From positions 17,997 through 81,996 of the forward strand of contig JAKATP010000001.1 of NCBI GenBank assembly GCA_021818685.1: DNA of 64,000 nt. The letters are read 5' to 3'. The DNA is from Bacillota bacterium. GTDB taxonomy: Bacteria > Bacillota > Sulfobacillia > Sulfobacillales > JAIMBI01. The translations under genes and the position numbers were made by a program. Under the pieces are notes generated by a model. The model was not told the DNA's origin. It did no database searches and was given only the letters and a program-made list of their open reading frames with translations. This document shows positions 1,595-60,916 of the stretch, in pieces (positions within the stretch are counted from its first letter, which is position 1; each line of letters opens with the position of its first letter).

Positions 1595-4500
1595 GTGCAG
1601 ATCTTCGGGCTTGCGGGGAGCCTGCCCTCCCTCCTCACGGCCGCCCTGGCCGGGCGGGACCACCCGATGCTGGTGCTGACCCAAGGATGGGGCGAGGCGC
1701 AGCGGGTGGCCGTCGAGGTCGGGGAATGGCTCGGCGAGGATCGGGTAGTGCTGCTCCCGCCCCGGCCCGTGGTTTATGGGGCGGTCACGGCAGCGGGGCA
1801 TGAATGGGAGCACCGACGCCTGGAGGCATTCGATCGCATGCGGCGGCGTCCCGACGTTACCCTCGTCGCGCCGGCTGAAGCGGCGCGCCAACTTGTCCGG
1901 CCCCTCCGCTTCAGTCCAATTTCGCTGCGCGTCGGAGAGGTCGTCGACCGGGATGCCGTGGCCGAGCGTCTGGTTCGTCTTGGCTATGAGCGGCTCCCGA
2001 TGGTAGAGCAGCCGGGCCAGTGGGCGCTCCGGGGCGCGATTCTCGACGTGTTCCCTCCGGAGGGCGAGCCGGTGCGCGTCGAGTGGTTCGGGGATGAAAT
2101 CGATCTGGTGACACACTTTGATCCGGTGAGCCAACGCTCGACCGGTCGTGTCAGTGTGGCGAGTGTGGGGCCTGCGCGGGAGGTGCTCTATACGCGGGAG
2201 GAGGCCCTCCGCGCGGTGGATCGCCTCACGCGGGAGCTGAAGCCGGCTGCCGCAGCCCAGCGGAGTGTGGGGCGGCGGGACGTGGCCGACGCCATGGAGG
2301 CGCGCTGGGAAGAGCGCTTTGGGTGGCTTTTGGACGGACGGTCATGGCCCGGTATTGAGCGTATTATCAGCGCGTTCGGACCCGCGGTCCCCCTTCCCGC
2401 TCTGTTCGATGAGGAGCCGGTCGTGGTTTTTGTCGATCGTGAGCGGGTGCTGGAGGCGGTGCGGGGCCGGGATCTGGAGGAGATCGGCGAGCAGCAGCGG
2501 CGTCTCGAACGAGGCGAACTCCTGCCAGTGGAGTGCGAGGCAAGCTTGGGAGAGAACGAGTTGGCCGCGCGGATGCGGGGTAGGGCTGTCGTCTCGCTCT
2601 CGCTGCTTCCGCATCAGCGACGTCACCAGAGCCACGTCTTCAGCCTGGCGGGGAGACCGGCGCCGCGCGCCCATGGCCAGTGGGATCTGCTCCTGGCCGA
2701 GGTCCAACGTCTGCGAAAGGCTCGTCACCGGGTAGTGCTGGTGGTGAAGGACGCCCAGGTTCAGGCGGACCTGACGCACCGGCTCCTCGACGCCTCGGTG
2801 CCGGTCCGCCAGAGCCTTCCGGAACCGGGGGAGGCCGGCGTGCTGGTCGGTCATCTGGGTCAGGGGTTCATTCTTCCGGAGCTCATGCTGGCGGTCTTCA
2901 CGGAGACGGAGCTCACCGGGCGGGATGTCCGGATCCATCCCGCCCGGCGTCGTTCGGTGACAGGCCAGTCGCTGGTCAAGCTGGCCGAACTCAGTGTCGG
3001 CGACTATGTGGTGCACGTCACCCATGGCATCGCCGTGTACCGTGGCGTGCTCACGCTGGAGGCGGGAGGAAAGCCACGAGACTATCTGCACCTGGAGTAC
3101 GCCGGCGACGACACGCTTTACGTACCGGTCGAACAGCTGGACATGGTGCAGCGCTATGCAGGCGTGCAGGACCGGCCGCCCCGTTTGTCGAGGCTCGGTG
3201 GCGGCGACTGGAGCCGTACCAAAGAACGTGTCCGGGCCTCCGTGCGAGAGATGGCCGAGGAGCTCATTCGGCTCTATGCGGCCCGCAAGGCGCGTCCGGG
3301 TTTTGCCTTTGGGCCGGACACCCCCTGGCAGCAGGATTTTGAGAGCGCCTTTCCTTATGAGGAGACGCCCGACCAGTTGAAGTGTTCCCGGGAGATCAAA
3401 GCCGACATGGCCGAACCCCGGCCCATGGACCGACTGCTGCTGGGTGACGTCGGCTACGGCAAGACGGAGGTGGCGCTCCGGGCGGCGTTCAAGGCCATCA
3501 TGGCCGGCAAGCAGGTTGCCTTGCTCGTGCCGACCACCCTGCTGGCAGAACAGCATCTAGTTACCGCCCGTTCCCGCATGATGGGGTTCCCGATTGTGGT
3601 GGAGGTGTTGAGCCGGTTTCGCAGTGCCCGTGACCAGGCCTCGGTCCTGAAGGCCTTGAAGGACGGATCCGTGGACATGGTGATCGGGACCCACCGTCTT
3701 CTCGGTGCCGACGTGAACTTCCGGGACCTCGGCCTTCTGATCGTGGATGAGGAGCATCGCTTCGGTGTGGCCCACAAAGAGCGCATCAAGCGGCTGCGCG
3801 AGGTGGTGGATGTGCTGACGCTCTCGGCTACGCCTATCCCGCGTACTCTTCACATGGCGATGGTGGGGGTGCGTGACATGAGCGTGATCGAGACGCCGCC
3901 TGAGGATCGCTTCCCGGTGGAGACGGTAGTGGCGGAGTGGGACGAGGACCTTGTCCGCGAAGCGATGCGGCGGGAGCTGGAGCGCGAGGGCCAGGTGTAC
4001 TACGTGCAAAACCGCATCCTGGCTATGGATGGGACGCTGTCCCGGATCCGGGCCATGCTGCCGGAAGCGCGTGTCGCGGTCGCGCACGGTCGGATGGAGG
4101 AGGACCAGCTCGAAGAGGTGATGGCTAGGTTTTTGGCGCAGGAGTACGACATCCTGGTGGCGACCAGCATCATCGAGTCGGGGCTTGACATTCCTTCGGT
4201 CAATACCTTGGTGGTTGAGGACGCCGACCGTATGGGGCTCGCCCAGCTCTACCAGCTGAGGGGCCGGGTGGGCCGCTCGAATCGTTTAGCCTACGCCTAC
4301 TTTACCTTCCGCCGCGACCGGCGGATCACGCCGGAAGCCGAGCAGCGCCTCATGGCCATCCAGCAGTTCACCGAGCTCGGATCCGGCTATCAAATCGCCT
4401 TGCGGGATCTGGAAATTCGCGGAGCCGGGAACCTTTTGGGGCCGGAGCAGCATGGTTTTGTCGCGTCGGTCGGCTTCGAGCTTTATACACAGCTGCTGGC

Positions 4501-4990
4501 CGAGGCCGTCGCGGAGCTTCGGGGTCAGGCACCCGAGGTTCCAATCGAAACGGCTCTCGACTTTCATGTCACCGCTTATGTGCCGGATGACTACGTCGAA
4601 GACGAGCGCCAGAAAATTGCCCTCTATAAGCGTCTTGTATCGTCGGGGAGCCTCGAGGATGTGGAGAGCCTCAGAGAGGAGATGGAGGAGCGGTACGGAC
4701 CGCCGCCGGATGCGGTGCGCGATCTCATCCGCATCACGCGCATCCGGGTGCTGGCAAAAGCGCTCGGCCTCTCCCAGGTGACCCACCGCCGCGATCGCCT
4801 GGTCTTCCGGCTGTCGCACCGCGGCGAGGTGCAGGGAGAAGCCGTTCAGCGTCTCGGACAGAAATACCCCGGCCGGCTCGTACAAATGCAGGGGCGGCAC
4901 CCGGAGCTGGGTTTTCGCCTCCTGGATGGTCAGGAGGACGTACTCACGACGGCGGAGGATGTTCTGGCCACCTTGAAGGGCGTTTCCTGA
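1595..4990 (+). CDS. mfd: transcription-repair coupling factor Mfd
   Basis: 1131-aa ORF with a CarD/TRCF block (VGDYVVHVTHGIAVY) and SF2 translocase motifs GDVGYGKTEVA and VDEEHRFGV. Conserved position upstream of spoVT. The true start is probably upstream of the GTG at 1595 (see finding). Confidence 0.95.
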   Translation: MQIFGLAGSLPSLLTAALAGRDHPMLVLTQGWGEAQRVAVEVGEWLGEDRVVLLPPRPVVYGAVTAAGHEWEHRRLEAFDRMRRRPDVTLVAPAEAARQLVRPLRFSPISLRVGEVVDRDAVAERLVRLGYERLPMVEQPGQWALRGAILDVFPPEGEPVRVEWFGDEIDLVTHFDPVSQRSTGRVSVASVGPAREVLYTREEALRAVDRLTRELKPAAAAQRSVGRRDVADAMEARWEERFGWLLDGRSWPGIERIISAFGPAVPLPALFDEEPVVVFVDRERVLEAVRGRDLEEIGEQQRRLERGELLPVECEASLGENELAARMRGRAVVSLSLLPHQRRHQSHVFSLAGRPAPRAHGQWDLLLAEVQRLRKARHRVVLVVKDAQVQADLTHRLLDASVPVRQSLPEPGEAGVLVGHLGQGFILPELMLAVFTETELTGRDVRIHPARRRSVTGQSLVKLAELSVGDYVVHVTHGIAVYRGVLTLEAGGKPRDYLHLEYAGDDTLYVPVEQLDMVQRYAGVQDRPPRLSRLGGGDWSRTKERVRASVREMAEELIRLYAARKARPGFAFGPDTPWQQDFESAFPYEETPDQLKCSREIKADMAEPRPMDRLLLGDVGYGKTEVALRAAFKAIMAGKQVALLVPTTLLAEQHLVTARSRMMGFPIVVEVLSRFRSARDQASVLKALKDGSVDMVIGTHRLLGADVNFRDLGLLIVDEEHRFGVAHKERIKRLREVVDVLTLSATPIPRTLHMAMVGVRDMSVIETPPEDRFPVETVVAEWDEDLVREAMRRELEREGQVYYVQNRILAMDGTLSRIRAMLPEARVAVAHGRMEEDQLEEVMARFLAQEYDILVATSIIESGLDIPSVNTLVVEDADRMGLAQLYQLRGRVGRSNRLAYAYFTFRRDRRITPEAEQRLMAIQQFTELGSGYQIALRDLEIRGAGNLLGPEQHGFVASVGFELYTQLLAEAVAELRGQAPEVPIETALDFHVTAYVPDDYVEDERQKIALYKRLVSSGSLEDVESLREEMEERYGPPPDAVRDLIRITRIRVLAKALGLSQVTHRRDRLVFRLSHRGEVQGEAVQRLGQKYPGRLVQMQGRHPELGFRLLDGQEDVLTTAEDVLATLKGVS

Positions 4991-5234
4991 GATCGGAGCG
5001 CAGCTTCGGGATCGACACGCATAGCGTGCTGCCGCTCCGGCTACTCTATCGTCGAGCTTCGCGCGGAACATCTTCTCGGCCGACTCTCGTGTCGAATCAG
5101 GAGCAACGCCTGCGTACGCGAGTGGGGTCAGGGCCGACAAACCGCCGTCGTTCAACAATTTCCGAAGCGCTCGAGGCGTCTTGGCATCTGGTGTCCGCCG
5201 CCGGCAGTCGGCGACGGGCAGGGCCGCCGGAGAA

Positions 5235-30311: not shown

Positions 30312-30737
30312 TCAGCTGCGAACGCCGGCCTCATACACCTGTACGCCTAATATGGCCAGGATGAGCACATGAAGCGTGGAGCACCAGATGCAGATATGGT
30401 GCAGCACATCGAATTCCACGAAAACGAGATAGATGACCACGATGGCGCCGGCGATGCTCCAGGCCATCAAGTAGGATCGTATCCGCTCCGATTGCCGTGA
30501 CATGAGAACGAGGGCGCCCGTCACGAGAAACCAGAACAGGCCCCAGAGGGGAACGGGGATGCCCAGCACGACCGACTCCGGGCTCGTCAGCACGTTCTCA
30601 CAGTTGATAAGCCCATGAGCCTGGCTTCCGAGACAGTAGAGCGGTACCCCCGTGTCATAGTGGAGCACGGTCAGATAAGCCGCAATGACGATACCCACGG
30701 CACTCATGAGGAGGAGGGCGAAACGCCGTGCCGTCAT
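30312..30737 (-). CDS. vitamin K epoxide reductase (VKOR) family membrane protein
   Basis: Loop cysteines at ...[16 protein letters not shown]..., redox CxxC at [10 protein letters not shown], and 4-5 TM segments. ATG 30737 overlaps the upstream stop (ATGA). Confidence 0.8.
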
Positions 30738-31645
30738 GGCACGCCCGGCAGGATGCTCTCCGCCGTGGAGATGCTGCTCTGGTCGCACACGGACGCGGGC
30801 CGGTTGCCGTCGGAGCGGCAGATGGCCGCGGTGAATTCGTTAGCGTTGGCCAGAATCGCGTCGGCGATAGCGCCCTGGCCGGAATGCACATCGCCTAAAA
30901 TGGCGGACCAGCTGGCCCCGGTCAGGACGCCGGGAGAATAGGGCGCCGAAATCCACAGATAGTGTCCACCGATTAGGATGAAGGGAATCGGATACGTACC
31001 TGCCTGGGTGGTGGCGGGTACGTAGGGCGGGACGTCATACCGCTTCAACATGGCGGCCTGATAAGCGGTGAGCCGCTGTACAGGTACGCCCTGACGGTTG
31101 TACTCTTCCACCAGCTGTGCCGAGATGTAGCGGCTGTGGTAGGTCGCGCCGCGATACGACATGGTCGGCGTATTCGGGAAAACATCGGTGGGAGACGAAT
31201 GCATGTACTTCAAGCCCGAAAAGCTGCCAAAGCGGGATAGCGCGATCGTGAGCGCCCAGCGGGTGGCGGCGCAGAACGGGCAGTACTCTCCGCCGATATA
31301 AAGGACCGTGGGGGCATGCAGCGCCATCGGGCGGGCCACCGCGGGCTGGGTGGACTGCTGGATGCCGACCGGATTCCAGGTCGACGCCGGAATCGTCGTC
31401 AGCTCCGTGACGATCGAGGCGGGAATGGGTTTACCGTTGTCGGCCGATACCGTGGGGCTGGTGGAAAGGGCCGAGAAGGCGATCACCACGACCACCGCCA
31501 CCAGAATACCTGCGAAGACCCAGGCCACGAGCGGTACCTGAAAGCCGCGATATTTGTCTTTGTAGCTTGCGGATCCACCTGGCTTGCGGCCAGACTTCTT
31601 GCCGCTCTTTTCCAATGTCGCCGCCTCCTGTTGCGTCCTTCCCAT
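30734..31645 (-). CDS. DUF929-family thioredoxin-like protein with N-terminal membrane anchor
   Basis: A TM anchor ([21 protein letters not shown]) followed by [18 protein letters not shown], the CPFC motif typical of DUF929. ATG 31645; the track ORF from 31753 is over-extended. Confidence 0.7.
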
Positions 31646-31775
31646 CCCCGGTTCCTCTGTCTCGCGACCAACCGATGGGGGCTCACATGTCGACCTATTG
31701 TAGCGCCTGTCTGTTAAGGGGAAAACTGAGACCAGGCTTGGAATGAGGTTCACTCCCGGACCGGGAAGTTCTCTG

Positions 31776-31784
31776 TGCTATAAT
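31776..31784 (+). promoter_or_regulatory. extended -10 element upstream of ftsH
   Basis: TGCTATAAT (TGn + TATAAT) at 31776-31784, about 40 nt upstream of the ftsH ATG. The -35 is weak. Confidence 0.4.
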
Positions 31785-31825
31785 GAAGCGCTTTTTTGGC
31801 GGCTCGCTTGCGAAAGGGGAGACCC

Positions 31826-33698: not shown

Positions 33699-34979
33699 GT
33701 GTTCGCCGGTTCCGCACATGACGGGGTATCGGTATACGTGTACCCGACCGATCGCTTCAAGACCCTCTCGCTCTACGCCTGCTGGGTGGGGGAACTCGAC
33801 GCCGCCACGGCGGCGCCGAACGCTCTCGTTGCGTATTGCCTACGGCGGGGAACCAGGGACTGGCCTACGTTTACCGCCATGCAGGCCCATCTGGAGGAGC
33901 TTTACGGAGCATCTTTCCGGGCCGATGTCGGCAAGCTCGGCGAGCATCAACTCCTCTCCTTTCGTCTCGAGATCCCGGACGGGCGATACCTGCCCGGCCA
34001 TCCGGACACATTGGGGGCCGGCCTCGATTTCCTACAAGCGGTCATGCAGTCGCCGCACCTCACCGTGGCGGGAGAGTTCCCCGACGACGTCGTGGGGCAG
34101 GAAAAGGACCTCTTGCGGCGCCAGATTGAAGGCCTCATCAACGATAAGGCGCAATATGCGGTCCTGCGCTGCATTGAGGCCATGGCGGACGGGGCCAAAT
34201 TTGGCGTACCGCGGTACGGCCGGGTGGAGGATCTGGACGGCATCGACCAGCAGACCGTAGCGGCCCGTTGGCGGGAGGGTCGCAGACGCTGGCCGCTCCT
34301 GGTGTTTGGTGTCGGCGCGATAGATGCGGCCGACTTCGAAGCGGCCGTGCGCGATCGCTTCCAGGGGCCCGAAAGGGCCCGGTCGCTTCGGCCGTCCAAG
34401 CCGTTTACGGCTACGCATGAGGGGCGTCTTTTGGTGGATGAGGAGGATGTGCGGCAGGGGAAGCTCCACCTTGGTCTCGCGACCGGGGTGCGGCTGCCAG
34501 ATGCCGACTATCCCGCTCTCATGATGTACACCGGGGTGCTGGGAAGCTTCCCGCACTCGAAACTGTTTGTGAATGTCCGCGAGAAGGCGAGCCTCGCCTA
34601 CTACGCCTACGCGCGGGTGGACGCGGCCCTGGGGCTCATGATGATTGGCGCCGGCATCGAGTTCTCGAACTTCCGCTCCGCGCTCGATATCATACGCCGT
34701 CAGCTCGACGACATGCGCGAAGGGCGGATAAGTGAGGACGAGATGGCGTTCACGCTCGAAAGCTTCACGAACGAGCTCAAGGCTGAGGCAGACTCCCCGT
34801 CGGCCCTGATTGGCCGGGAGTTGGAGCGGCGGCTTTTGGGCGGCGGCCCCACCAGCGAGGAACTGGAAGAGAGCCTGGCGCGGGTGACCCGTGATGACGT
34901 GGAGAGGATTGCTGCGCAGGTGGACCTGGACCTCATCTACTTTCTCACCGCGCGTGGGGAGGTGCCGGCGTATGCGTGA
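33699..34979 (+). CDS. M16-family (pitrilysin-like) peptidase subunit lacking the HxxEH motif
   Basis: 426 aa with an insulinase-like architecture. I see no HxxEH. Paired with and translationally overlapping the next M16 gene (YmfF/YmfH-like arrangement). Confidence 0.7.
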   Translation: MFAGSAHDGVSVYVYPTDRFKTLSLYACWVGELDAATAAPNALVAYCLRRGTRDWPTFTAMQAHLEELYGASFRADVGKLGEHQLLSFRLEIPDGRYLPGHPDTLGAGLDFLQAVMQSPHLTVAGEFPDDVVGQEKDLLRRQIEGLINDKAQYAVLRCIEAMADGAKFGVPRYGRVEDLDGIDQQTVAARWREGRRRWPLLVFGVGAIDAADFEAAVRDRFQGPERARSLRPSKPFTATHEGRLLVDEEDVRQGKLHLGLATGVRLPDADYPALMMYTGVLGSFPHSKLFVNVREKASLAYYAYARVDAALGLMMIGAGIEFSNFRSALDIIRRQLDDMREGRISEDEMAFTLESFTNELKAEADSPSALIGRELERRLLGGGPTSEELEESLARVTRDDVERIAAQVDLDLIYFLTARGEVPAYA

Positions 34980-40784: not shown

Positions 40785-43325
40785 TTGGGCCCGGGGGGCG
40801 AAGAGCGTGGCATGCAAGAGGCCGCCCCGGGACGCCCGCTACTACATCTCGCGCCTCCATCCGCGCTTTTGGAAGCGTGGCGGGAGTGGTCCCGGCGTGT
40901 CGGCATGTCCCCCCGCCTCACGGTCACCCCGGGGGCGCTCGTATCCCGCTTCCTGTTGTCCCGCCTTCCCACTTCGCTCGATCATCGGATATCCACCCTG
41001 CCTGAAGTCGCCTGGACGCTCCGTCCGTCCCGCCTGACGTACCTGCCCGACGAGATTCTGCCGACGCTTCTCGCCGACGATGTTCGCGCCGCCGTCCCGG
41101 CGCCGTGGCGGGGACCGGGTGCTGCCGAGGCGCTTATCGAAGCTGCCGTGCGCATTCGCCGTCACGGGGAGACGCCGGATTCCCTGCCCGCCATTCCAGC
41201 GGGATGGCGGGACGCCATGGACGTCGCCTGGAGCCGGCTTGCGCGAGCGCTCCGGCGCGCCTGCGACGAAACAGGGCTATATCGGTATGCCGCGACGAAC
41301 TCATTCGCCCCTCTCTCCGGTACCCGGATGGCGGTGTTTGGCATGCTGGAGGCCAGACCGGCCCCCGCCTCGATGCTGGCGGCCCTGGCCCGCGAGCTGC
41401 CCATGACGGTCTTCGTGCCTTGGCTTTCTGAGAGTGCTGATCGCTACGTCGAGCCATGGGTGGAGTGGTGGCGGGAGCAGGGAGCCCATATCGAAGAGGA
41501 GGGCCGCGGCGCGGGCCGGTCCCATTTGGTGGGAATTTCGACGCCGGGAGCGGGTCTCGACTGGATCCGAACCGTCATCGAGGAGGGCGCCCGAACAGAA
41601 CCAGCGGCGACGGGATGGGCGCTTGCGGCCCCGTCGGTGGAAGAGGCCCAGACCTCCGCGCGCTGGCTCAGGCGTCAAGGAGTGCCGGTCGTAAGCGCGC
41701 GGGAACCGGTCCACCTGTCTGAGCGGCTCCGCACGGCGCTCCGGGCTGCCGCGAACGACGCCGGCGCTGATGCGATCCTCACCTGGCTTCGGCAGTCGTC
41801 TTACGACATTGCGGAGGCGGACCGAGAGACCCTCCGGGCGAATGCCCGGCGGCCGAGCCTATGGCCGCGCGCGGTCGTGGACCGCCACCAGGACCTCCGC
41901 CAGGCCCTGGAATCTCTCCTCCGGGCCGCGCGCTTTTCGGATGTCCCCGCGGCCCTCGGACGGCTCGCAGAGGCGGCCGGCATCCCGTTTGTGTGGCCGG
42001 CCGAAGCCGTGGAGCAACTGTCGACATGGGACGCGGCCGGCATTGCGCCCGCTAAAGACAGCCTCCGCGTGTGGATTGAACGGGCGGCCGTCGCAGGTCC
42101 GGTGACAGGGTCCGGACTCCTGGTAGAGAGCCTGTGGGAGTTTCGCGGTACGTATCACGCGCGGCTCATTGTCACGAGCCTTGACACCGAGGCGGTCGAA
42201 CCGGCGCCGGAGTGGGATCTCGGCCCTGGGGAGGGGTGGATTGTCGCCTGGCACCCGGAGCGGCGTGCCCGGCGGGAGATGGCCCTCCACCATTTGAAGG
42301 CGCTGGCCCTCCTGTCGGCCGACGTGGTGTACGTGGCCGGATCGCCCGATCGGCCCTGGCCGCCGGACCTGCGTCCGGCGGTCGTCATCGAGGAGGGACC
42401 GTCCGTTAGAGGTCCGGGGCTCGCCGTCTCCCGGATGCGACGTGACGCGAGGTACGGACCCTTTGACGGCCTGTTCGATGCCAACACCATCACACGTCCT
42501 GGCACGCCGAGCGGGTACGAGACCTTTGGCCGATGTCCCTTGCAGTACGCTTTCAAGACGCTCGGAGTCGCCGCGTGGCCGTCCGACCGACCGGACCCGG
42601 ATCCCACTGAGCTTGGGACCTGGGCCCACTTTACTCTTGAACACGTGTTGTCAGGGTCCAGGCGGAGTCGGCCTGAACTTCCCAGCCTCCTTCGGGAAGT
42701 GCGACGCCAGGTGTCCCGGGCGGTGGCCCTGCGGCCGCCGTCGGAAGGCGTCCTGCCAGCTTTCCTGGAATGGAGTGAGGAGTCGCTGGCGGCGGACCTC
42801 GCGTGGTATCTAATGAACGACTGGCCGACCGGCAAGGTAGAGACGGAGAAACAGTGGGAACTGGACGGCCTGTCGGGGAGAATAGACCGAGTCGAGCACC
42901 GCGACGACGGAGTCGTCGTGGTCGATTATAAGACGGGCAGAATGCCGTCCGCCACCCTCTCTCCCCTGGCGCTTCAGCTCCCGATCTACGCGGCGGCTGC
43001 GGCGAATCTGTACGGGGTCACGCCAGATCGCATCCAGGCCCGCTATCAGGGAGTCCGTGCTCATAACGGCTTCCGGTCGGTTGAGCTGCCTGGCCCGACG
43101 ACCGCCCGCATTTTGGAGGCGAGGAGGATCGTGGCCGGCATCGATGACGCCATCGCCGCCGGTCACCTGTATTTGAACCCGCACGAGGCCGCCTGCCGGT
43201 CATGCGAGTTCCGTCCCGCCTGCACGTATGAGGCGGCGCGGGACGCCGTGCGCAAGCGTCCGCACGATCCCGTGTTCGCCGCGCTCTGGGACGACGACCC
43301 GCATGGCGGCGAGGAGGGGCTCTGA
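40785..43325 (+). CDS. addB: AddB/RexB-like PD-(D/E)XK nuclease subunit with 4-Cys cluster; no Walker A seen
   Basis: C-terminal nuclease GRIDRVEHRDDGVVVVDYKTG and QLPIYAAA. Cysteines at FGRCPLQY plus CRSCEFRPAC (C-x2-C-x5-C), as in the AddB iron-sulfur staple. I found no GxxxxGK[ST]. Sits immediately upstream of, and coupled to, the addA-like gene. Confidence 0.7.
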   Translation: MGPGGEERGMQEAAPGRPLLHLAPPSALLEAWREWSRRVGMSPRLTVTPGALVSRFLLSRLPTSLDHRISTLPEVAWTLRPSRLTYLPDEILPTLLADDVRAAVPAPWRGPGAAEALIEAAVRIRRHGETPDSLPAIPAGWRDAMDVAWSRLARALRRACDETGLYRYAATNSFAPLSGTRMAVFGMLEARPAPASMLAALARELPMTVFVPWLSESADRYVEPWVEWWREQGAHIEEEGRGAGRSHLVGISTPGAGLDWIRTVIEEGARTEPAATGWALAAPSVEEAQTSARWLRRQGVPVVSAREPVHLSERLRTALRAAANDAGADAILTWLRQSSYDIAEADRETLRANARRPSLWPRAVVDRHQDLRQALESLLRAARFSDVPAALGRLAEAAGIPFVWPAEAVEQLSTWDAAGIAPAKDSLRVWIERAAVAGPVTGSGLLVESLWEFRGTYHARLIVTSLDTEAVEPAPEWDLGPGEGWIVAWHPERRARREMALHHLKALALLSADVVYVAGSPDRPWPPDLRPAVVIEEGPSVRGPGLAVSRMRRDARYGPFDGLFDANTITRPGTPSGYETFGRCPLQYAFKTLGVAAWPSDRPDPDPTELGTWAHFTLEHVLSGSRRSRPELPSLLREVRRQVSRAVALRPPSEGVLPAFLEWSEESLAADLAWYLMNDWPTGKVETEKQWELDGLSGRIDRVEHRDDGVVVVDYKTGRMPSATLSPLALQLPIYAAAAANLYGVTPDRIQARYQGVRAHNGFRSVELPGPTTARILEARRIVAGIDDAIAAGHLYLNPHEAACRSCEFRPACTYEAARDAVRKRPHDPVFAALWDDDPHGGEEGL

Positions 43326-46282
43326 TGGGTGAAGACCGTCCGCGTCCGGCGGACTGGGCGGAACGAGAACGCGTCCGGACCGATTTCCACCACAACCTGG
43401 TGGTGGAGGCGGGGGCCGGAACAGGCAAGACCACCCTCTTGGTGGAGCGTACCCTCTACGCCATCGCCACGGGTACGTTGCAACTCTCCCGGATGATTGT
43501 CGTGACGTATCTGGAAAAGGCAGCCGTCGAGCTCCGGCAGCGAATCCGGACGCGGCTGGAAGAGGCGCTGGCCGCCGGGGACGAGGCAGCCCGCCCGTTC
43601 TTGGAGCGCGCGCTGCATGAACTGCCCACGGCGCGTATCGGCACCCTCCACGGCCTCGGGCACGGCATTCTCTTGCGGCACGCCGTCGAGCTGGGGCTTG
43701 ACCCCAGGATGACAGTCTGGGATGCGGTGGAGACCGAGCGGCAGCGAAATCTCGCGCTTCGGCAGTGGTTCATGAGTCCACACCCGGAAGTGCTCCATGC
43801 CATGCGGTTGGGTGTGAGCTACCAGGACTTTGAGATTCTGCTGCGGACGGTCGCGGGGTTGCCCGGAGATGAGACGGCGTGGGGCGAGCCGCCCGAGTCA
43901 GCGGACGCCCTGTTGACGGCGTTTTTGACCACGCTCGATCACCTCGCTCGGGTGATAGCGACGGTGGCACCCGATCCCGAGGATCGCGGTGTGCGGCAGG
44001 TGGCCGAATGGCGCGAGATCTTCGGACGGATCGGAGACCTGCCGGCGGCGTCCGCCGTCGCTCGTCTCTATGGGCTCAAGCTCTCGGCGCCCGCGGGAAG
44101 TCAGGCCCGCTGGGCACGTGAACGAGTTCACCTGGTCGAACAGAAGGCAGAGCTGCAGGCACTCCGGGAGCGTCTTCAGGCATGGCAGGCGGCAGCGGCC
44201 GCGAGTGCAGGCCAGCGTCTGGTGGCGGCCGCCAGGGACTTCTCGCACTTCTTTCAGACATGGCGTCGGGAGCGACGGGCCGTGATCTACGACGACCAGG
44301 TCCGCCTCGTGGCGGCGGCGCTCTTAGACCGCGACATTCGGGAGGAAGAAGCCGCCTCGATTGACGCCATCTTGGTGGACGAGTACCAGGACACCTCACC
44401 GATCCAGGTGGAGATCGTGAGCGCGCTCGCAGCGGGACCGGGCGGAACCGCCGCCGAGGCACCCCCGCCGGGACGGCTCGTCCTGGTCGGCGACCCGAAG
44501 CAGTCCATCTATGGATTCAACGGTGCGGATCTGGCGCACGCCCGGCGCTGGGCCGAGAACCTCCTTACGGGGGGAAGTGCGGTGCTGGTTCCCATCACCA
44601 CCAACTTTCGGAGCCGACCCGCCATCCTCGACGTGGTCAATCAGACGTTTTTGGCGGTCTTTAATACAGACGCGATGCGCGACCCGGAATACCGTCCGCT
44701 CGTGCCCTATCGGGAGCCCCACGCGGATCCCGCGGTCCATCGCTTCCGCCTGTACGAAGAGGGGGAGGATCTGACCTCGGACGCGGCGCGGGCCCGCGAG
44801 GCGGCGGCCGTGGCGTCGATCATCCGGTGTGCGGTCGACGAAGGGTGGACCGTTGCCGACCAGGGTCAGCATCGCCCTCTCCGATTGCGGGATGTGACGA
44901 TTCTGGTTCCGCGGCGGACGGGTCTCGACCTTTATCGCCGTGCTCTCGATGATGCGGGTATTCCCGTGCGGGGCGGGGCGGGGCGCGATTTCTACCGCCG
45001 CGACGAGGTGCGCGGGTTGTCTGCGGTGCTGCGGGCGGTGGTTTTGCCAGAAGATGGGCTGGCCGTGCTCGCGGCGCTTAGATCCCCTTTCTTCGGGATC
45101 GAAGACCGCGAACTGATGCGGCACCGGAAAGAGGGTGGCCACTTTGCTCTTGGCGGATCGAGAGGTCCGGAGGGACCCGTGCGCGACGCACTGGGTATGT
45201 TGCAAACCTGGGCCGACGCATGGCCCGATGCGCCGCTCGCCGACTTATTGGAGAAGGTGGCGGCACCGGTGCGGGAGCAGTTTGATGCTCGCGAAGCGGC
45301 CAATGTCGACGCCCTCATCGAGGAATGTGCGCGCTACGCGCCACGATGGGGAGGCGCCGAGTATGCCGAGTGGTTGTGGGCGCGGGTGGTAGCTGGCGAC
45401 GAAGGCGACGAAGCGGTGCCGGACGCGGCATCTGACGCTGTCAGCTTCTCGACGATCCACCGCGCCAAAGGACTCGAGTGGCCCCTGGTCATTGTGGCGA
45501 ATCTGCGACACGAGCGGGCCGTGCGTCGCGACCCGGTCGTATTCGACCGTAAGAGTCAGCAGTTTGGACTGCGCATCGGCGGCCGCAAGACGGGGTCATT
45601 CTCAGGAGTGGAAGAGGAGGTCCGGGCTGAGGAAGATGCCGAGCTCCGGCGGCTTTGGTATGTGGCGCTTACGCGGGCACGAGACCATCTGGTGATTATG
45701 GAGACGGACCCCGAAGTCGTGCTTTTCCGCCATCTGGCCATCCGGAGCCAGCCCGGCCCGGCGCCCGCCGCGCGGCCGCCCGTAACGGTGGCCCCGACCC
45801 GTCGGCAAGCCGTCTTAGGGTCGGGACAGCTCCTCGGGCTGGAGGCCTCCCCCGCCGGGTCGATCGGCCGGGCTTCCTCGAAAGGCGGGGAGATGCGGCT
45901 GTGGGTGCGCCGCCTGCTGTCGGATGCGGCCTCAAACCGCACCGCTTGGCTGGCCCGTGCGCCCTCCTCGCTCCGCCCCGGCCTTCAGTGGATGCAGGGG
46001 CGGCCGTGGGTCCCGGACCAGCCGGTCCGCACTGGCATTCCGGTTCATGTGGAGGGGGAGCCGGCGGTCGATGACGTCATCGACGTGATGATCGAGACGG
46101 AGGCGGGAGCCGTGTTGGTGCAGGTACTTGACGGCGGCGAAGCGGACCAGGTCCGGGGAGCCCTGGCCCGCACGCTTGCGGCCCTGGCCGCGGCAGGGAT
46201 GCCTCTGAAAATGGGTGTGCTGATCGCCCCCGAGCTGGGCTGCGAGTGGCCGATCGATCCCGGCGGGAGCATTTCGGATTAG
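43325..46282 (+). CDS. addA: UvrD/Rep-family helicase, AddA/RexA-like
   Basis: EAGAGTGKTTLL (Walker A), ILVDEYQDTSP, GDPKQSIY, FSTIHRAKGLEWPLVIV and YVALTRARDHLVI. The C-terminal region resembles a RecB-type nuclease fold, but the (D/E)xK position reads LDG. Confidence 0.8.
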   Translation: MGEDRPRPADWAERERVRTDFHHNLVVEAGAGTGKTTLLVERTLYAIATGTLQLSRMIVVTYLEKAAVELRQRIRTRLEEALAAGDEAARPFLERALHELPTARIGTLHGLGHGILLRHAVELGLDPRMTVWDAVETERQRNLALRQWFMSPHPEVLHAMRLGVSYQDFEILLRTVAGLPGDETAWGEPPESADALLTAFLTTLDHLARVIATVAPDPEDRGVRQVAEWREIFGRIGDLPAASAVARLYGLKLSAPAGSQARWARERVHLVEQKAELQALRERLQAWQAAAAASAGQRLVAAARDFSHFFQTWRRERRAVIYDDQVRLVAAALLDRDIREEEAASIDAILVDEYQDTSPIQVEIVSALAAGPGGTAAEAPPPGRLVLVGDPKQSIYGFNGADLAHARRWAENLLTGGSAVLVPITTNFRSRPAILDVVNQTFLAVFNTDAMRDPEYRPLVPYREPHADPAVHRFRLYEEGEDLTSDAARAREAAAVASIIRCAVDEGWTVADQGQHRPLRLRDVTILVPRRTGLDLYRRALDDAGIPVRGGAGRDFYRRDEVRGLSAVLRAVVLPEDGLAVLAALRSPFFGIEDRELMRHRKEGGHFALGGSRGPEGPVRDALGMLQTWADAWPDAPLADLLEKVAAPVREQFDAREAANVDALIEECARYAPRWGGAEYAEWLWARVVAGDEGDEAVPDAASDAVSFSTIHRAKGLEWPLVIVANLRHERAVRRDPVVFDRKSQQFGLRIGGRKTGSFSGVEEEVRAEEDAELRRLWYVALTRARDHLVIMETDPEVVLFRHLAIRSQPGPAPAARPPVTVAPTRRQAVLGSGQLLGLEASPAGSIGRASSKGGEMRLWVRRLLSDAASNRTAWLARAPSSLRPGLQWMQGRPWVPDQPVRTGIPVHVEGEPAVDDVIDVMIETEAGAVLVQVLDGGEADQVRGALARTLAALAAAGMPLKMGVLIAPELGCEWPIDPGGSISD

Positions 46283-57752: not shown

Positions 57753-57782
57753 TAAGAGAAAACGGGCAGCCCAATGCTGCCG

Positions 57783-57930
57783 CACCTTCTCCCATCCAGA
57801 CTTTACTGTCGGTACCGGAGTCACACCGGTTCCTGCCCGTAGGCTCGCGGACTTGTCGCCCTGTGGCGCATCACCGCCGGTCCGGAATCGGGATTGCTCC
57901 CTCACCGTGCCCCGAAGGTCCTCTTCAGTG
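57783..57930 (-). promoter_or_regulatory. FMN riboswitch (RFN element)
   Basis: Minus strand reads ...GAGGACCTTCGGGGCACGGTGA...TCCCGATTCCGGACCGGCGGT...GTCCGCGAGCC...CCGGTGTGACTCCGGTACCGACAGTAAAGTCTGGATGGGAGAAGG. This matches the conserved RFN blocks (TTCGGGGCAGGGTGAAATTCCC, ACCGGCGGT, CCGACAGTAAAGTCTGGATG.GAGAAG) and sits directly upstream of ribD. Confidence 0.9.
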
Positions 57931-58051
57931 TATGGAGCAAAGCCTTAGGCGTCAATGAACGCTCGCGCACGCGAGGGGATCTGGGAGATCCGGAGGTTCT
58001 GACGCTGTCGGTCGCGAAGTGCCGATCACACAGTCAAAGCGGGGGATGACC

Positions 58052-58822
58052 ATGGCAGTTGTCAGTACGGAACGACGCGACGGATACGCGATTGTCACCA
58101 TCAACCGGCCTCAGGTCTTAAACGCGCTCAATCGCGAGGTGCTGGAGGCCTTGCAGGAAGCGGTAGCCGCCATCGAGGCAGATGCCGCCATGCGGGCTCT
58201 CATCGTGACCGGTGCGGGGCGCGCGTTCGCTGCGGGCGCTGATATCCGCGAGATTCAGGCCCTCGCCCATCCTGCCGCGGCGGAAGCTTTCTCCCAATTT
58301 GGCCAGCACATCATGACCCTCATCGCACAAAGCCGTCTCGTCTCCATCATGGCGATCAACGGTTTTGCCCTCGGCGGCGGGCTGGAGCTGGCCATGGCGG
58401 GCGATTACCGGATCATCGCTGAGGGCGCCGAGTTAGGGCAGCCAGAAATCTTGCTCGGCATCATACCGGGTTTCGGCGGCACCCAGCGCCTCAAAGACCT
58501 CTGCGGAGCGGGCCGCGCGCTCTGGCTCATTGCTTCGGGAGAGCGCATCGACGCGGCCCACGCGCTCGCCTGGGGAATCGTTGATGAAGTGCAGCCGGCC
58601 AACGAGGTGCTGCCGCGGGCGGAGGGCATGGCATCGGCACTGGGAACGCGGGCTCCGCTCGCGCTGGCGGCTGCCAAGCGGGCCGTGAGAGCCGAGGGGC
58701 AACTGTCTCATCGTCTGCTGTTCGAAGCGGCCGAGTTCGGCCTCATCGGATGCTCGGATGATGCGCGAGAGGGCACGGCTGCGTTTCTCGAGAAGCGGTC
58801 GCCAAGGTTCCAGGGCTCGTAG
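58052..58822 (+). CDS. enoyl-CoA hydratase/isomerase (crotonase) family
   Basis: ITINRPQVLNALN...LIVTGAGRAFAAGADI...AINGFALGGGLELAMAGD...PEILLGIIPGFGGTQRL. ATG 58052 or 58046. Confidence 0.9.
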   Translation: MAVVSTERRDGYAIVTINRPQVLNALNREVLEALQEAVAAIEADAAMRALIVTGAGRAFAAGADIREIQALAHPAAAEAFSQFGQHIMTLIAQSRLVSIMAINGFALGGGLELAMAGDYRIIAEGAELGQPEILLGIIPGFGGTQRLKDLCGAGRALWLIASGERIDAAHALAWGIVDEVQPANEVLPRAEGMASALGTRAPLALAAAKRAVRAEGQLSHRLLFEAAEFGLIGCSDDAREGTAAFLEKRSPRFQGS

Positions 58823-59907
58823 GGGGCTTGATAGCAGTCCCGGCGCACGTTGGTAGCCGTATCGGGGGATCTCGCGGCGGGGGGCACGACGGTGCGGCCA
58901 GGCGGACAGGCGATCGCTTGGTGTGCTCGGGCACCCGCATGGTGTGCGCCGCTTCTGCCGGCAGAGCGGGCAGTGTCTCAGGCTTCGGATCGATTCGGGG
59001 CTGGACGGCCGGCCGTCGGCGTTACCCCGCTCGAAATCAAGCGGCCGATAGGGGATGCCCCCGTCCGAGAGCTGTTAAGCAGCGTCGCATGGCGATCCAT
59101 GCGATCCAGAGGTACCTCGGCCCCATCCTATCGTGTGATCGCGATACCCGCCGACAGACAACGTGTCGATCTCCGCTCTAGCTGGGGCCGGAGCCGGTTT
59201 TCGGTTAGTCTCCGGTGTCAGAGAGTTTCGCAGGATCCCACAGCGTGTCGCCCGTGGCCGTCCCCGTGCGGCTGCAGAAAGAGAACGAGGATAGACCCAG
59301 CAAAGGGGTGCGGTCAGGGTTCGGCGGCCCGGATGGGCCGGCCGCCCTTCCCTAGGAGACGGCCCCAGAGTACCGAGACTACGCGCGCAGGCGCGCACCA
59401 AGGACGCTACTGACGTCTGAGCCCCCACGGCGGCGATTCGGGCTCCTGTCGGGGGCTCGCCGGAGTGGGGCCCGGATCCGGGATCGTGCCTAAGCCCGCC
59501 AGGCTTGTGGGCCAGCGATCGAGTGAGCGCCTGGGCCACGAACATGCGCATTGGGTAGACCATAAAGAGCACGTGCGCCGCAACCGGCGCATCCCCCGTG
59601 CTTCCCGGACGCGCCCGCCCGTGCGAACTTTCTAAGTCAGGTCGTGTAGTGCGTGAGGAGGCGCGGGCGTTGCGGGTGGCGGATGGAGAGGCGTCCTGCC
59701 GGGCAGTTCTTGGGACCTCGGAACTCCGGCCCCACCTTGCGGCGACCGGTGCGCTCACGGGCCTTCACAGCCAGGGCCTCCTGGCTGCTACCATGTACCA
59801 CATGGGCCGGGCGCGACGTTGGTAGATCGTCGACGGCAGGGAATTTGCTTCGATTCGCGGAAACATTTTCGGGTTCTTACGCTGTTTTCGGACCGGACGT
59901 CAACCTA

Positions 59908-59931
59908 TCGCCATATCGCCATATTGCCATG
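59908..59931 (+). repeat. three tandem 8-mers TCGCCATA / TCGCCATA / TTGCCATG
   Basis: 59908-59915, 59916-59923 and 59924-59931. The array ends at the moxR SD (GAGGA 59931-59935). Confidence 0.7.
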
Positions 59932-59944
59932 AGGACGTGAGCCG

Positions 59945-60916
59945 ATGAATGATGACAATGCCTCGGTACAGGTAAAAGAAGAAGAGAGGCTGGCGGCGGT
60001 GGCTGCCCAGATCGAGCGGGCCGTGGTTGGCAAGGCCTCCGTGGTGAAGCTGCTCCTAACCGCACTCGTGACGGGCGGCCATGTTCTTTTGGTCGACGTG
60101 CCCGGCGTGGCCAAAACACGCCTCGCGCGCTCCCTGGCCCTCTCATTGGATTTAAGCTTTGCCCGCATTCAGGCCACGCCGGACTTGCTGCCGGGCGACG
60201 TTATGGGCGTGTCGGTCTACGACCCTCAGAATGGTGAGTTCCGGTACCGGCCGGGCCCCGTCTTAAACCAGCTGGTGCTGGTGGACGAGGTGAACCGAGC
60301 CACGCCCCGCACGCAGTCGGCCCTCTTGGAAAGCATGGAAGAACATCAGGTGACCGTAGACGGGGTGAGCCATCAAATCCCCTCTCCATTTATGGTGCTG
60401 GCGACGCAGAACCCGATCGAAATGGAAGGCACTTACCCCCTTCCGGAAGCTCAACTGGATCGATTCCTGTTGGCAACCCCGGTCGGATACCCGGAACTCG
60501 CCGATGAAATGGAGATGGTGAGCCGCTTGGGTCAGGATGAGCCGATGGATCGGTTCGAGGCTTTGGCCGGACCTGACGATGTGCTGCGATGGCGCCGAGC
60601 CGCCCTCAAGGTCCACCTGTCCGAACCCGTTCAACGGTATCTGGTGGAGGTGGTGCGCCAGACCCGGGCGCTTCCACGCATCCAGCTCGGCGCGAGCCCA
60701 CGGGCGACTCTATGGTTTTCGCGGGCCGTGCGGGTGTACGCCTGGCTTGAGGGGCGGACGTACGTGCTGCCCGATGACGTGAAGGCCCTGGCGGGACCGG
60801 TTCTCGCTCACCGGCTCCTCCTGTCGGCTGACGCCGAGGTTCTGGGGCGGTCGGGGTCCTCGGTGGTGGAGGAGGTTCTGGCGGCGGTGCCGGTACCGAC
60901 CGAGCAGATCGGATGA
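59945..60916 (+). CDS. MoxR-family AAA+ ATPase
   Basis: GHVLLVDVPGVAKT (Walker A variant typical of MoxR), LVLVDEVNRATPRTQSALLESMEE and ATQNPIEMEGTYPLPEAQLDRF. Confidence 0.9.
   Translation: MNDDNASVQVKEEERLAAVAAQIERAVVGKASVVKLLLTALVTGGHVLLVDVPGVAKTRLARSLALSLDLSFARIQATPDLLPGDVMGVSVYDPQNGEFRYRPGPVLNQLVLVDEVNRATPRTQSALLESMEEHQVTVDGVSHQIPSPFMVLATQNPIEMEGTYPLPEAQLDRFLLATPVGYPELADEMEMVSRLGQDEPMDRFEALAGPDDVLRWRRAALKVHLSEPVQRYLVEVVRQTRALPRIQLGASPRATLWFSRAVRVYAWLEGRTYVLPDDVKALAGPVLAHRLLLSADAEVLGRSGSSVVEEVLAAVPVPTEQIG

Follow-up and report, generated by a model that had tools for sequence, protein, structure and literature searches.

Bacterial pseudogenes usually shrink by deletion, a tendency known as deletional bias. 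The GDSL/SGNH hydrolase family is defined by its block I GDS(L) motif, which carries the nucleophilic Ser. The DNA studied here, an interval between a crotonase-family gene and moxR, resembles a bacterial pseudogene of this family under relaxed selection (Pfam PF13472, Lipase_GDSL_2): it lies at the position and on the strand of the intact orthologs in relatives, and a residual identity of 43% over 61 aa persists. As in other bacterial pseudogenes, catalytic residues and codon periodicity have been lost, and polymorphism is at a neutral level. Unlike a typical bacterial pseudogene, however, the interval is clearly recognisable only in the C-terminal third, and in length it exceeds the intact gene region. 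Large structured bacterial non-coding RNAs (OLE, ROOL, GOLLD, HEARO, and raiA) offer a second likeness, as the interval is a non-coding stretch of about a kilobase with normal G+C and many local stems; in contrast to these RNAs, it has no covariance-model match, no conservation in relatives, and no excess stability, and its polymorphism is high. The present evidence gives no reason to count it among these RNAs, either by descent or by mode of action. Clusters of REP/BIME-type palindromes and MITEs share with the interval a group of short, G+C-rich palindromic hairpins in an intergenic setting, but the stems of the interval all differ in sequence, so that no repeat family is formed, and the interval has no other copies in the DNA searched and no convincing terminal inverted repeats or target duplications. 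The analysis below indicates that the interval probably consists mostly of the eroded remains of a GDSL/SGNH esterase-type gene, that is, of non-functional, neutrally drifting DNA.

The crotonase-family ORF occupies 58019-58822 of the window (the whole 64-kb stretch of DNA that was analysed), with its stop at 58822, and the ATG of moxR lies at 59945. This leaves a gap of 1122 nt (58823-59944), with the same boundaries as in the preliminary description, where it had been presented as gene-free. A crude coding-like filter also confirmed that this is the largest non-coding stretch of the window; one rival region, 30942-31786, was rejected because it lies inside a 339-aa ORF that resembles a real protein (judged by eye only). 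The G+C content is genome-like, as had been stated (66.4% versus 65.8% for the whole window). The interval can be divided into the following features:

58823-59119, no strand: spacer after the crotonase stop codon, without detectable homology (blastn, nhmmer, and tblastn against relatives returned nothing)
59120-59263, plus strand: possible, marginal remnant of SGNH residues ~23-75 (Smith-Waterman), in the frame of the shadow ORF 58850-59413
59264-59624, no strand: core with a hairpin cluster, ~360 nt where SGNH residues ~76-134 (~180 nt) would be expected
59625-59825, plus strand: GDSL/SGNH hydrolase pseudogene remnant, C-terminal ~60 codons, ortholog residues 135-196 (tblastn, BLASTP, ortholog profile, and synteny)
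59833-59880, plus strand: conserved block GGCAGGGAATTT...GCGGAAAC.TTT.CGGGTT, 65-112 nt before the moxR ATG (blastn, nhmmer, and alignments)
59906-59930, plus strand: tandem repeat TATCGCCA, 3.1 copies (Tandem Repeats Finder score 43, 94% matches)

The identity of the 3' part emerged from relatives. Within the species itself, six fetched assemblies were 99.4-99.8% identical over 58019-60916, and the gap length was equal in all of them. No MoxR protein with an identity between 100% and 82% was present in a collection of 5.8 billion proteins, and the species is therefore isolated. In L007 ('Clostridia bacterium', MoxR 82%), the synteny of ribD, crotonase, and moxR is kept, and the crotonase-moxR interval of 830 nt contains an intact gene (4449-5048, plus strand) for a GDSL/SGNH hydrolase of 199 aa (Pfam Lipase_GDSL_2, 4.8e-23). 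In a third lineage, L089, the crotonase gene is followed by a 200-aa SGNH gene (1127-1729) and then by the moxR start, within an interval of 832 nt. The spacer between crotonase and the SGNH gene measures 120-137 nt in these two loci. The window, L007, and L089 are about equidistant by crotonase identity (71, 69, and 72%). The interval of the window is 292 nt longer than that of L007 and ~290 nt longer than that of L089. This comparison with the nearest syntenic relatives revealed what the Pfam, NCBIfam, and Rfam libraries had missed.

When the whole 64-kb window was searched by tblastn with the L007 protein, residues 135-195 matched 59625-59801 on the plus strand (61 aa, 43% identity, E 3.5e-7). 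Between the two intact orthologs, the identity is 70.5%. The 75-aa ORF containing the remnant (59598-59825, stop codon at 59823-59825) matched the ortholog in BLASTP with an E-value of 8e-11, a profile of four orthologs scored 18.6 bits on the remnant (E 6e-8), and a frameshift-aware alignment reached a score of 83 versus 25±5 for shuffles. At the DNA level, a profile built from the L007 and L089 intervals matched 59756-59878 (nhmmer, E 1.6e-10). In position and strand, the remnant also corresponds to the 3' end of the SGNH gene that L007 and L089 have intact, and the conserved block ahead of moxR begins shortly after it. The remnant escaped both the general Pfam models and a family profile of 61 sequences; similarity was found only against close orthologs and only in the C-terminal third. 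Where the aligned orthologs have the block V motif TADG(I/V)HMN, the remnant reads AATGALTG, in which the catalytic Asp of DxxH has become Thr and the catalytic His has become Leu. Because both residues are replaced, this sequence is a remnant and not a functional family member, and it should be marked as a pseudogene in the annotation. The preliminary description had named a fully decayed element as its second candidate. That idea holds for the 3' ~200 nt in the form of a decayed gene, given the GDSL/SGNH homology and the synteny, but apparently not in the form of a mobile element, as no transposase, TnpB, or IscB signal was present in any frame, the flanking inverted repeats are weak, and no second copy turned up in the DNA searched. 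Two of the observations that the preliminary description had listed as refuting it were made: most of the interval shows no conservation in relatives, and its 3' part matches a pseudogene remnant.

The N-terminal part of the gene left fainter signals. Smith-Waterman alignment at 59120-59263 with three orthologs scored 45 against P0002 (null 27.9±4.5, p 0.004), 37 against L007 (p 0.06), and 28 against P0003 (p 0.49). A collinear chain of HSPs with a PSSM for the SGNH N-terminus scored 120 versus 99±10, yet the reverse complement scored 115. Frameshift-aware scores for the N-terminal 136 residues were 36-41 versus 31±4 for shuffles, and HMMER with the ortholog profile found nothing for these residues in the gap. 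Judged by such alignment scores, 59120-59263 is a possible, unproven SGNH remnant. The block I GDS(L) motif, which reads FLGDSIT in the orthologs, was not recovered from the gap: two candidate strings, 'TGDRLVCSG' (58903-58932) and 'IGDAPVR' (59048-59068), score no better than chance, which is what a dead gene would be expected to show. Upstream of this region, the spacer 58823-59119 is longer than the crotonase-SGNH spacer of L089 and L007, and its 5 hairpins do not differ significantly from the expected 3.1±1.7. Downstream, the core 59264-59624 would hold ~180 nt of extra orphan sequence if residues 23-75 sit at 59120-59263. Positive identification extends to only ~200 of the 1122 nt.

The following course of events probably accounts for this arrangement. 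The common ancestor shared with the nearest known relatives would have carried a GDSL/SGNH esterase gene of ~200 aa on the plus strand, between crotonase and the moxR-DUF58 operon. In the lineage of the window, this gene has probably lost its function and been eroding since. Its last ~60 codons (59625-59825) are the part that is still recognisable, with the catalytic Asp and His lost, and its first two thirds have degraded to the edge of detectability. The ~290 nt of extra sequence may have accumulated through indels, small duplications, or an insertion, and 59826-59944 presumably retains a promoter or operator for the moxR operon, along with its 5' leader. Since two of the three about equidistant lineages have the gene intact, its loss in the lineage of the window is the parsimonious reading. 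That the gene was lost here, and not gained twice elsewhere, is our inference, as is the origin of the extra sequence. Ordinary genome decay, rather than a large RNA of a new kind, is hence the likely nature of the gap.

The position upstream of moxR is a variable slot among relatives. The crotonase gene nearly abuts moxR in L008, a 408-aa orphan gene lies upstream of moxR in L094, an ABC transporter and a 363-aa gene occupy the slot in L090, and L092 has a gene-poor stretch of 1.8 kb and no crotonase. No match to the gap was obtained by tblastn with the 408-aa protein of L094, the 161-aa protein of L092, the 363-aa protein of L090, or the 251-aa protein of L095. When metagenomes were scanned with the crotonase protein, the relatives obtained were all distant (identity of at most 52%) and thus useless for footprinting. 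The tblastx matches between the gap and the fetched loci were discarded; they were scattered and non-collinear, with inflated summed E-values, and are typical of shadow frames in G+C-rich DNA.

Within-species variation is dense in the gap. Over 14 kb compared in the six assemblies, 14 of the 56 variable sites fall in the gap, which makes up 8% of the compared sequence (binomial p 1e-4). The density in the gap is 12.5/kb; in the surrounding genes, it is 7.0/kb for third codon positions and 1.4/kb for positions 1+2. The gap is under relaxed constraint, with polymorphism at a neutral level. In the remnant ORF, two double substitutions fall at codon positions 2-3 (hand reckoning). Variation is uneven along the gap: 58823-59196 has 7 variable sites (18.7/kb), and the core 59197-59627 has 2 in 431 nt (4.6/kb), which is below the rest of the gap, based on small numbers, and is compatible with the third-codon-position rate for a stretch of 431 nt.

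The core is the part of the interval for which other origins have to be considered. At ~59197-59627, no homolog was found anywhere searched, perfect hairpins are ~3 times as frequent as expected, and polymorphisms are few; the hairpin-rich core amounts to about a quarter of the interval. It is improbable that these ~290-430 nt are a lineage-specific element, whether a young structured RNA born in a dying gene or a new small hairpin-rich insertion. The insertion would be a piece of ~180-430 nt within 59197-59627, either a non-autonomous mobile element (MITE-like) or other foreign DNA, that landed inside the dying SGNH gene. It would explain the extra length together with the hairpin cluster: L007 and L089 have intervals that are ~290 nt shorter, the best-supported SGNH pieces (59120-59263 and 59625-59801) leave ~360 nt for ~60 residues, the hairpin excess is concentrated exactly in the core, and the G+C content peaks there at about 70%, the highest of the gap. 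Nevertheless, we regard it as unlikely. The core is not flanked by convincing terminal inverted repeats or by a convincing target-site duplication; among inverted pairs, the best (14-21 nt, 81-93%, best 17/21 nt) have arms that lie outside the core or within the SGNH remnant. A second copy of the gap sequence was found neither in the 64-kb window, where blastn and tblastx gave only noise, nor in 1.35 Mb of related loci. In blastn, the gap matched no plasmid or phage, and an exact 28-mer of the core had 0 matches in metagenome contigs. In addition, no frame yielded a transposase-like translation, and Pfam, NCBIfam, and billion-scale protein searches with the two longest ORFs gave no transposase, TnpB, or IscB signal, contrary to the mobile-element idea in the preliminary description. 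The minus-strand ORF 59075-59758 had 0 homologs among 1.84 billion representative proteins.

Decay of the SGNH gene also has to be weighed against a structured RNA, which the preliminary description had put forward as its first candidate, listing six perfect stems. All six were found in place. Counted as distinct perfect hairpins with a stem of at least 6 and a loop of at most 30, the gap has 21, versus 11.4±3.3 in dinucleotide shuffles (0.5% of which reach 21) and 11.7±3.7 in comparison windows of 1122 nt (0.9% of which reach 21). The excess clusters at 59320-59605, with 11 hairpins versus 3.6±2.0 expected, in a sub-window that was picked after the data had been seen and in which several hairpins share arms or GGCC/GCGC-type low-complexity sequence; two other 286-nt windows of the 64-kb stretch reach 10 and 9. 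The reported hairpin density was therefore real as a count of perfect stems, a modest excess of about twice chance, but not in thermodynamic terms, where the MFE z was ~0. The z-scores were 0.03 (plus strand) and 0.01 (minus strand) for 59197-59627 and -0.72 for 58823-59800, so that neither the core nor the whole interval was more stable than composition-matched shuffles. Among 150-nt windows, the mean z was -0.32 (plus) and +0.31 (minus) for the gap, -0.30 and -0.19 for the flanking genes, and about -1.7 to -2.1 for the positive control, the FMN riboswitch region. The stems thus exist and are somewhat more numerous than expected, but they fold no better than random sequence of the same composition. 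They are probably a by-product of a G+C content of 66-70%, GGCC/GCGC-type low complexity, and lost coding constraint. The data do not show, however, that such stems are a general property of non-coding DNA in this group of genomes, because the non-coding stretch of L092 has no hairpin excess (11 versus 10.9). In DNA of ~67% G+C, stem counts made by eye are a poor guide to RNA structure.

Searches with covariance models agreed with the folding results. The whole window was scanned with Rfam 15 at gathering thresholds, and no match fell in the interval; elsewhere in the window, only an FMN riboswitch (57780-57923, minus strand) and one tRNA were found, and the detection of the riboswitch indicates that the scan worked. 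The models for the large RNA families OLE, ROOL, GOLLD, HEARO, and raiA, which the preliminary description had named for an Rfam scan, were negative. Those for RNase P, tmRNA, SRP, cobalamin, and group II introns were negative as well, in line with its failure to find their signature blocks. When the threshold was relaxed to E<=10 over 58700-60100, six chance-level matches of 9.7-19.7 bits to unrelated models appeared in the interval (eukaryotic microRNAs, a lncRNA exon, and archaeal snoRNAs, the best, at 19.7 bits, being a microRNA model). Conservation with covariation was not seen either: in the nearest relatives, whose MoxR identity ranges from 82% down to 65%, nothing homologous to the interval was present outside 59756-59878. 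The large structured RNA thus was not upheld, with no Rfam match, no conservation in the nearest relatives, no excess folding energy, and polymorphism at or above the third-codon-position level. The result is mainly a negative one, in that a conspicuous, 'hairpin-dense' gap of 1.1 kb in G+C-rich DNA appears to be a pseudogene remnant plus drifting filler.

A narrower version of this idea places a lineage-specific structured RNA within the pseudogene remains, which would be either a stand-alone sRNA or part of the moxR operon transcript as a long 5' leader, with the cluster 59320-59605 as its fold. The enrichment of perfect stems over dinucleotide shuffles and other windows is in keeping with such an RNA, as are the lower polymorphism of 59197-59627 (4.6 versus ~19/kb in the rest of the gap), the variant 59384 C>T, one of two in the core, which would retain a G-U pair on the plus strand, and the fold of the plus strand, which is 43 kcal/mol more stable than that of the minus strand. 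However, this strand asymmetry is expected from the G>C and T>A skew through G-U pairs, and the low polymorphism amounts to 2 sites where ~3-5 are expected. The MFE z-scores given above are flat, no Rfam family matches even at E<=10, and with no homolog anywhere searched, covariation cannot be shown. Moreover, the core is situated upstream of the block that may serve as the moxR promoter and is therefore probably not in the moxR leader. Taking both sides together, we give this RNA only a small chance.

A protein product of the long plus-strand frame also has to be considered. The ORFs of the gap (58850-59413 on the plus strand, 59075-59758 on the minus strand, and several shorter ones) are rich in Arg, Pro, Gly, and Ser. 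All ORFs of at least 46 aa were scanned with Pfam and NCBIfam; Pfam found no family in the eight gap ORFs or in all six full-frame translations, and NCBIfam gave only noise for the gap ORFs (E 0.2-0.26). G+C by codon position is flat in the two long ORFs (65/70/66% and 68/70/64%), versus 68-74/43-56/75-77% in the genuine neighbours crotonase, moxR, DUF58, and ribD, and an earlier hand tally by phase over 59401-59640 was reproduced at 71.3/72.5/61.3%. With no family match and flat codon-position G+C, the earlier statement that no ORF of the gap is protein-like was confirmed. It is very improbable that 58850/58877-59413 encodes an orphan protein of 178-187 aa: the ORF is open in 6/6 assemblies of the species and is gene-called in three of the six (L003, L004, and L006; stored as protein P0148), but its codon-position G+C is unlike that of genuine genes, its composition is that of the other gap ORFs, it matches only itself (own species) among 5.8 billion proteins, without a Pfam or NCBIfam match, its within-species variants are distributed 3:3:2 by codon position (hand count) versus 5:6:27 in genuine genes, and the opposite strand has an ORF of equal length, as is common where high G+C creates shadow frames. 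We recommend that the annotation no longer list the 178-aa 'hypothetical protein' of some assemblies.

The 3' end of the interval differs from the rest. The TATCGCCA repeat lies directly 5' of the ribosome-binding site of moxR and is absent from L007 and L089 in the alignment. The window, L007, L089, and L092 all have the conserved block, at 74-127 nt before the start of moxR, and L094 has part of it. Two ideas about this block were rejected: as an RNA structure, it has no consensus fold (-2.3 kcal/mol, with an unfavourable covariation term), and as a sigma-54 promoter, it has a fitting GG-N10-GC spacing in the window, but L007, L089, and L092 do not share the -12 TTGC (by eye). Conservation between species in the interval is confined to the surroundings of this block (nhmmer match 59756-59878), which in blastn is 84% identical to L007 over 43 nt. 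The block at 59833-59880 is probably a promoter or operator of moxR, and it is the only piece likely to be of regulatory value. It lies within 59826-59944, which presumably also includes the 5' leader of the operon and is probably the only part of the interval that is still working.

Upstream of moxR, a short block is conserved across species, and a tandem repeat lies immediately before the ribosome-binding site:

Window 59833-59880, + strand: conserved block of ~50 nt upstream of moxR, recognized by cross-species conservation
Window 59906-59930, + strand: tandem repeat TATCGCCA x3.1, abutting the moxR ribosome-binding site on its 5' side

The block is kept among species whose MoxR proteins are only 74-82% identical, while the remaining intergenic DNA is not conserved. 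A consensus RNA fold was sought for this block and none was found. For the moxR-DUF58 operon, the block is a candidate promoter or operator. The repeat is absent from two related loci, L007 and L089 (both with an intact SGNH hydrolase gene before moxR), and may act as an operator or as a slippage-prone sequence affecting moxR expression.

On the other side of the gap, two features were examined:

Window 58019-58822, + strand: crotonase gene, adjoining the SGNH pseudogene
Window 57780-57923, - strand: FMN riboswitch (Rfam RF00050, 91.9 bits)

Within-species polymorphism of the crotonase gene is unusually high (11.2 sites/kb, against an average of 4/kb and 0-1/kb in moxR and DUF58), with variable sites distributed 2:2:5 over the three codon positions. 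The gene is entirely absent from the related locus L092. Like the adjoining pseudogene, it may be under relaxed constraint. The riboswitch, located upstream of the ribD-ribE-ribBA-ribH operon, shares 80-91% nucleotide identity with its copies in L007, L092, and L094.

The region upstream of moxR was also inspected in two relatives:

L092 2390-3184 and 3185-3688: gene-poor stretch upstream of moxR
L094 2732-3958, + strand: 408-aa ORF in the crotonase-moxR slot

In L092 (MoxR 74%, same sample set), the gene-poor stretch extends 1.8 kb from the FMN riboswitch to moxR and shows no sequence relationship to the window's gap; a single gene was called there, a minus-strand, lipoprotein-like ORF of 161 aa with a signal peptide containing LLAGC. 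The ORF of L094 (MoxR 73%) has no Pfam domain and no similarity to the gap.

Elsewhere in the window, two 286-nt stretches (~43187-43472 and ~34178-34463) contain 10 and 9 perfect short hairpins, counts that match that of the hairpin cluster in the gap. A further ORF was noted:

Window 30734-31753, - strand: 339-aa ORF

Its product has a membrane anchor at the N terminus and also contains a CPFC motif. This ORF lacks the genome's usual G+C codon-position pattern, and was therefore marked as a "gap" by the crude coding filter.
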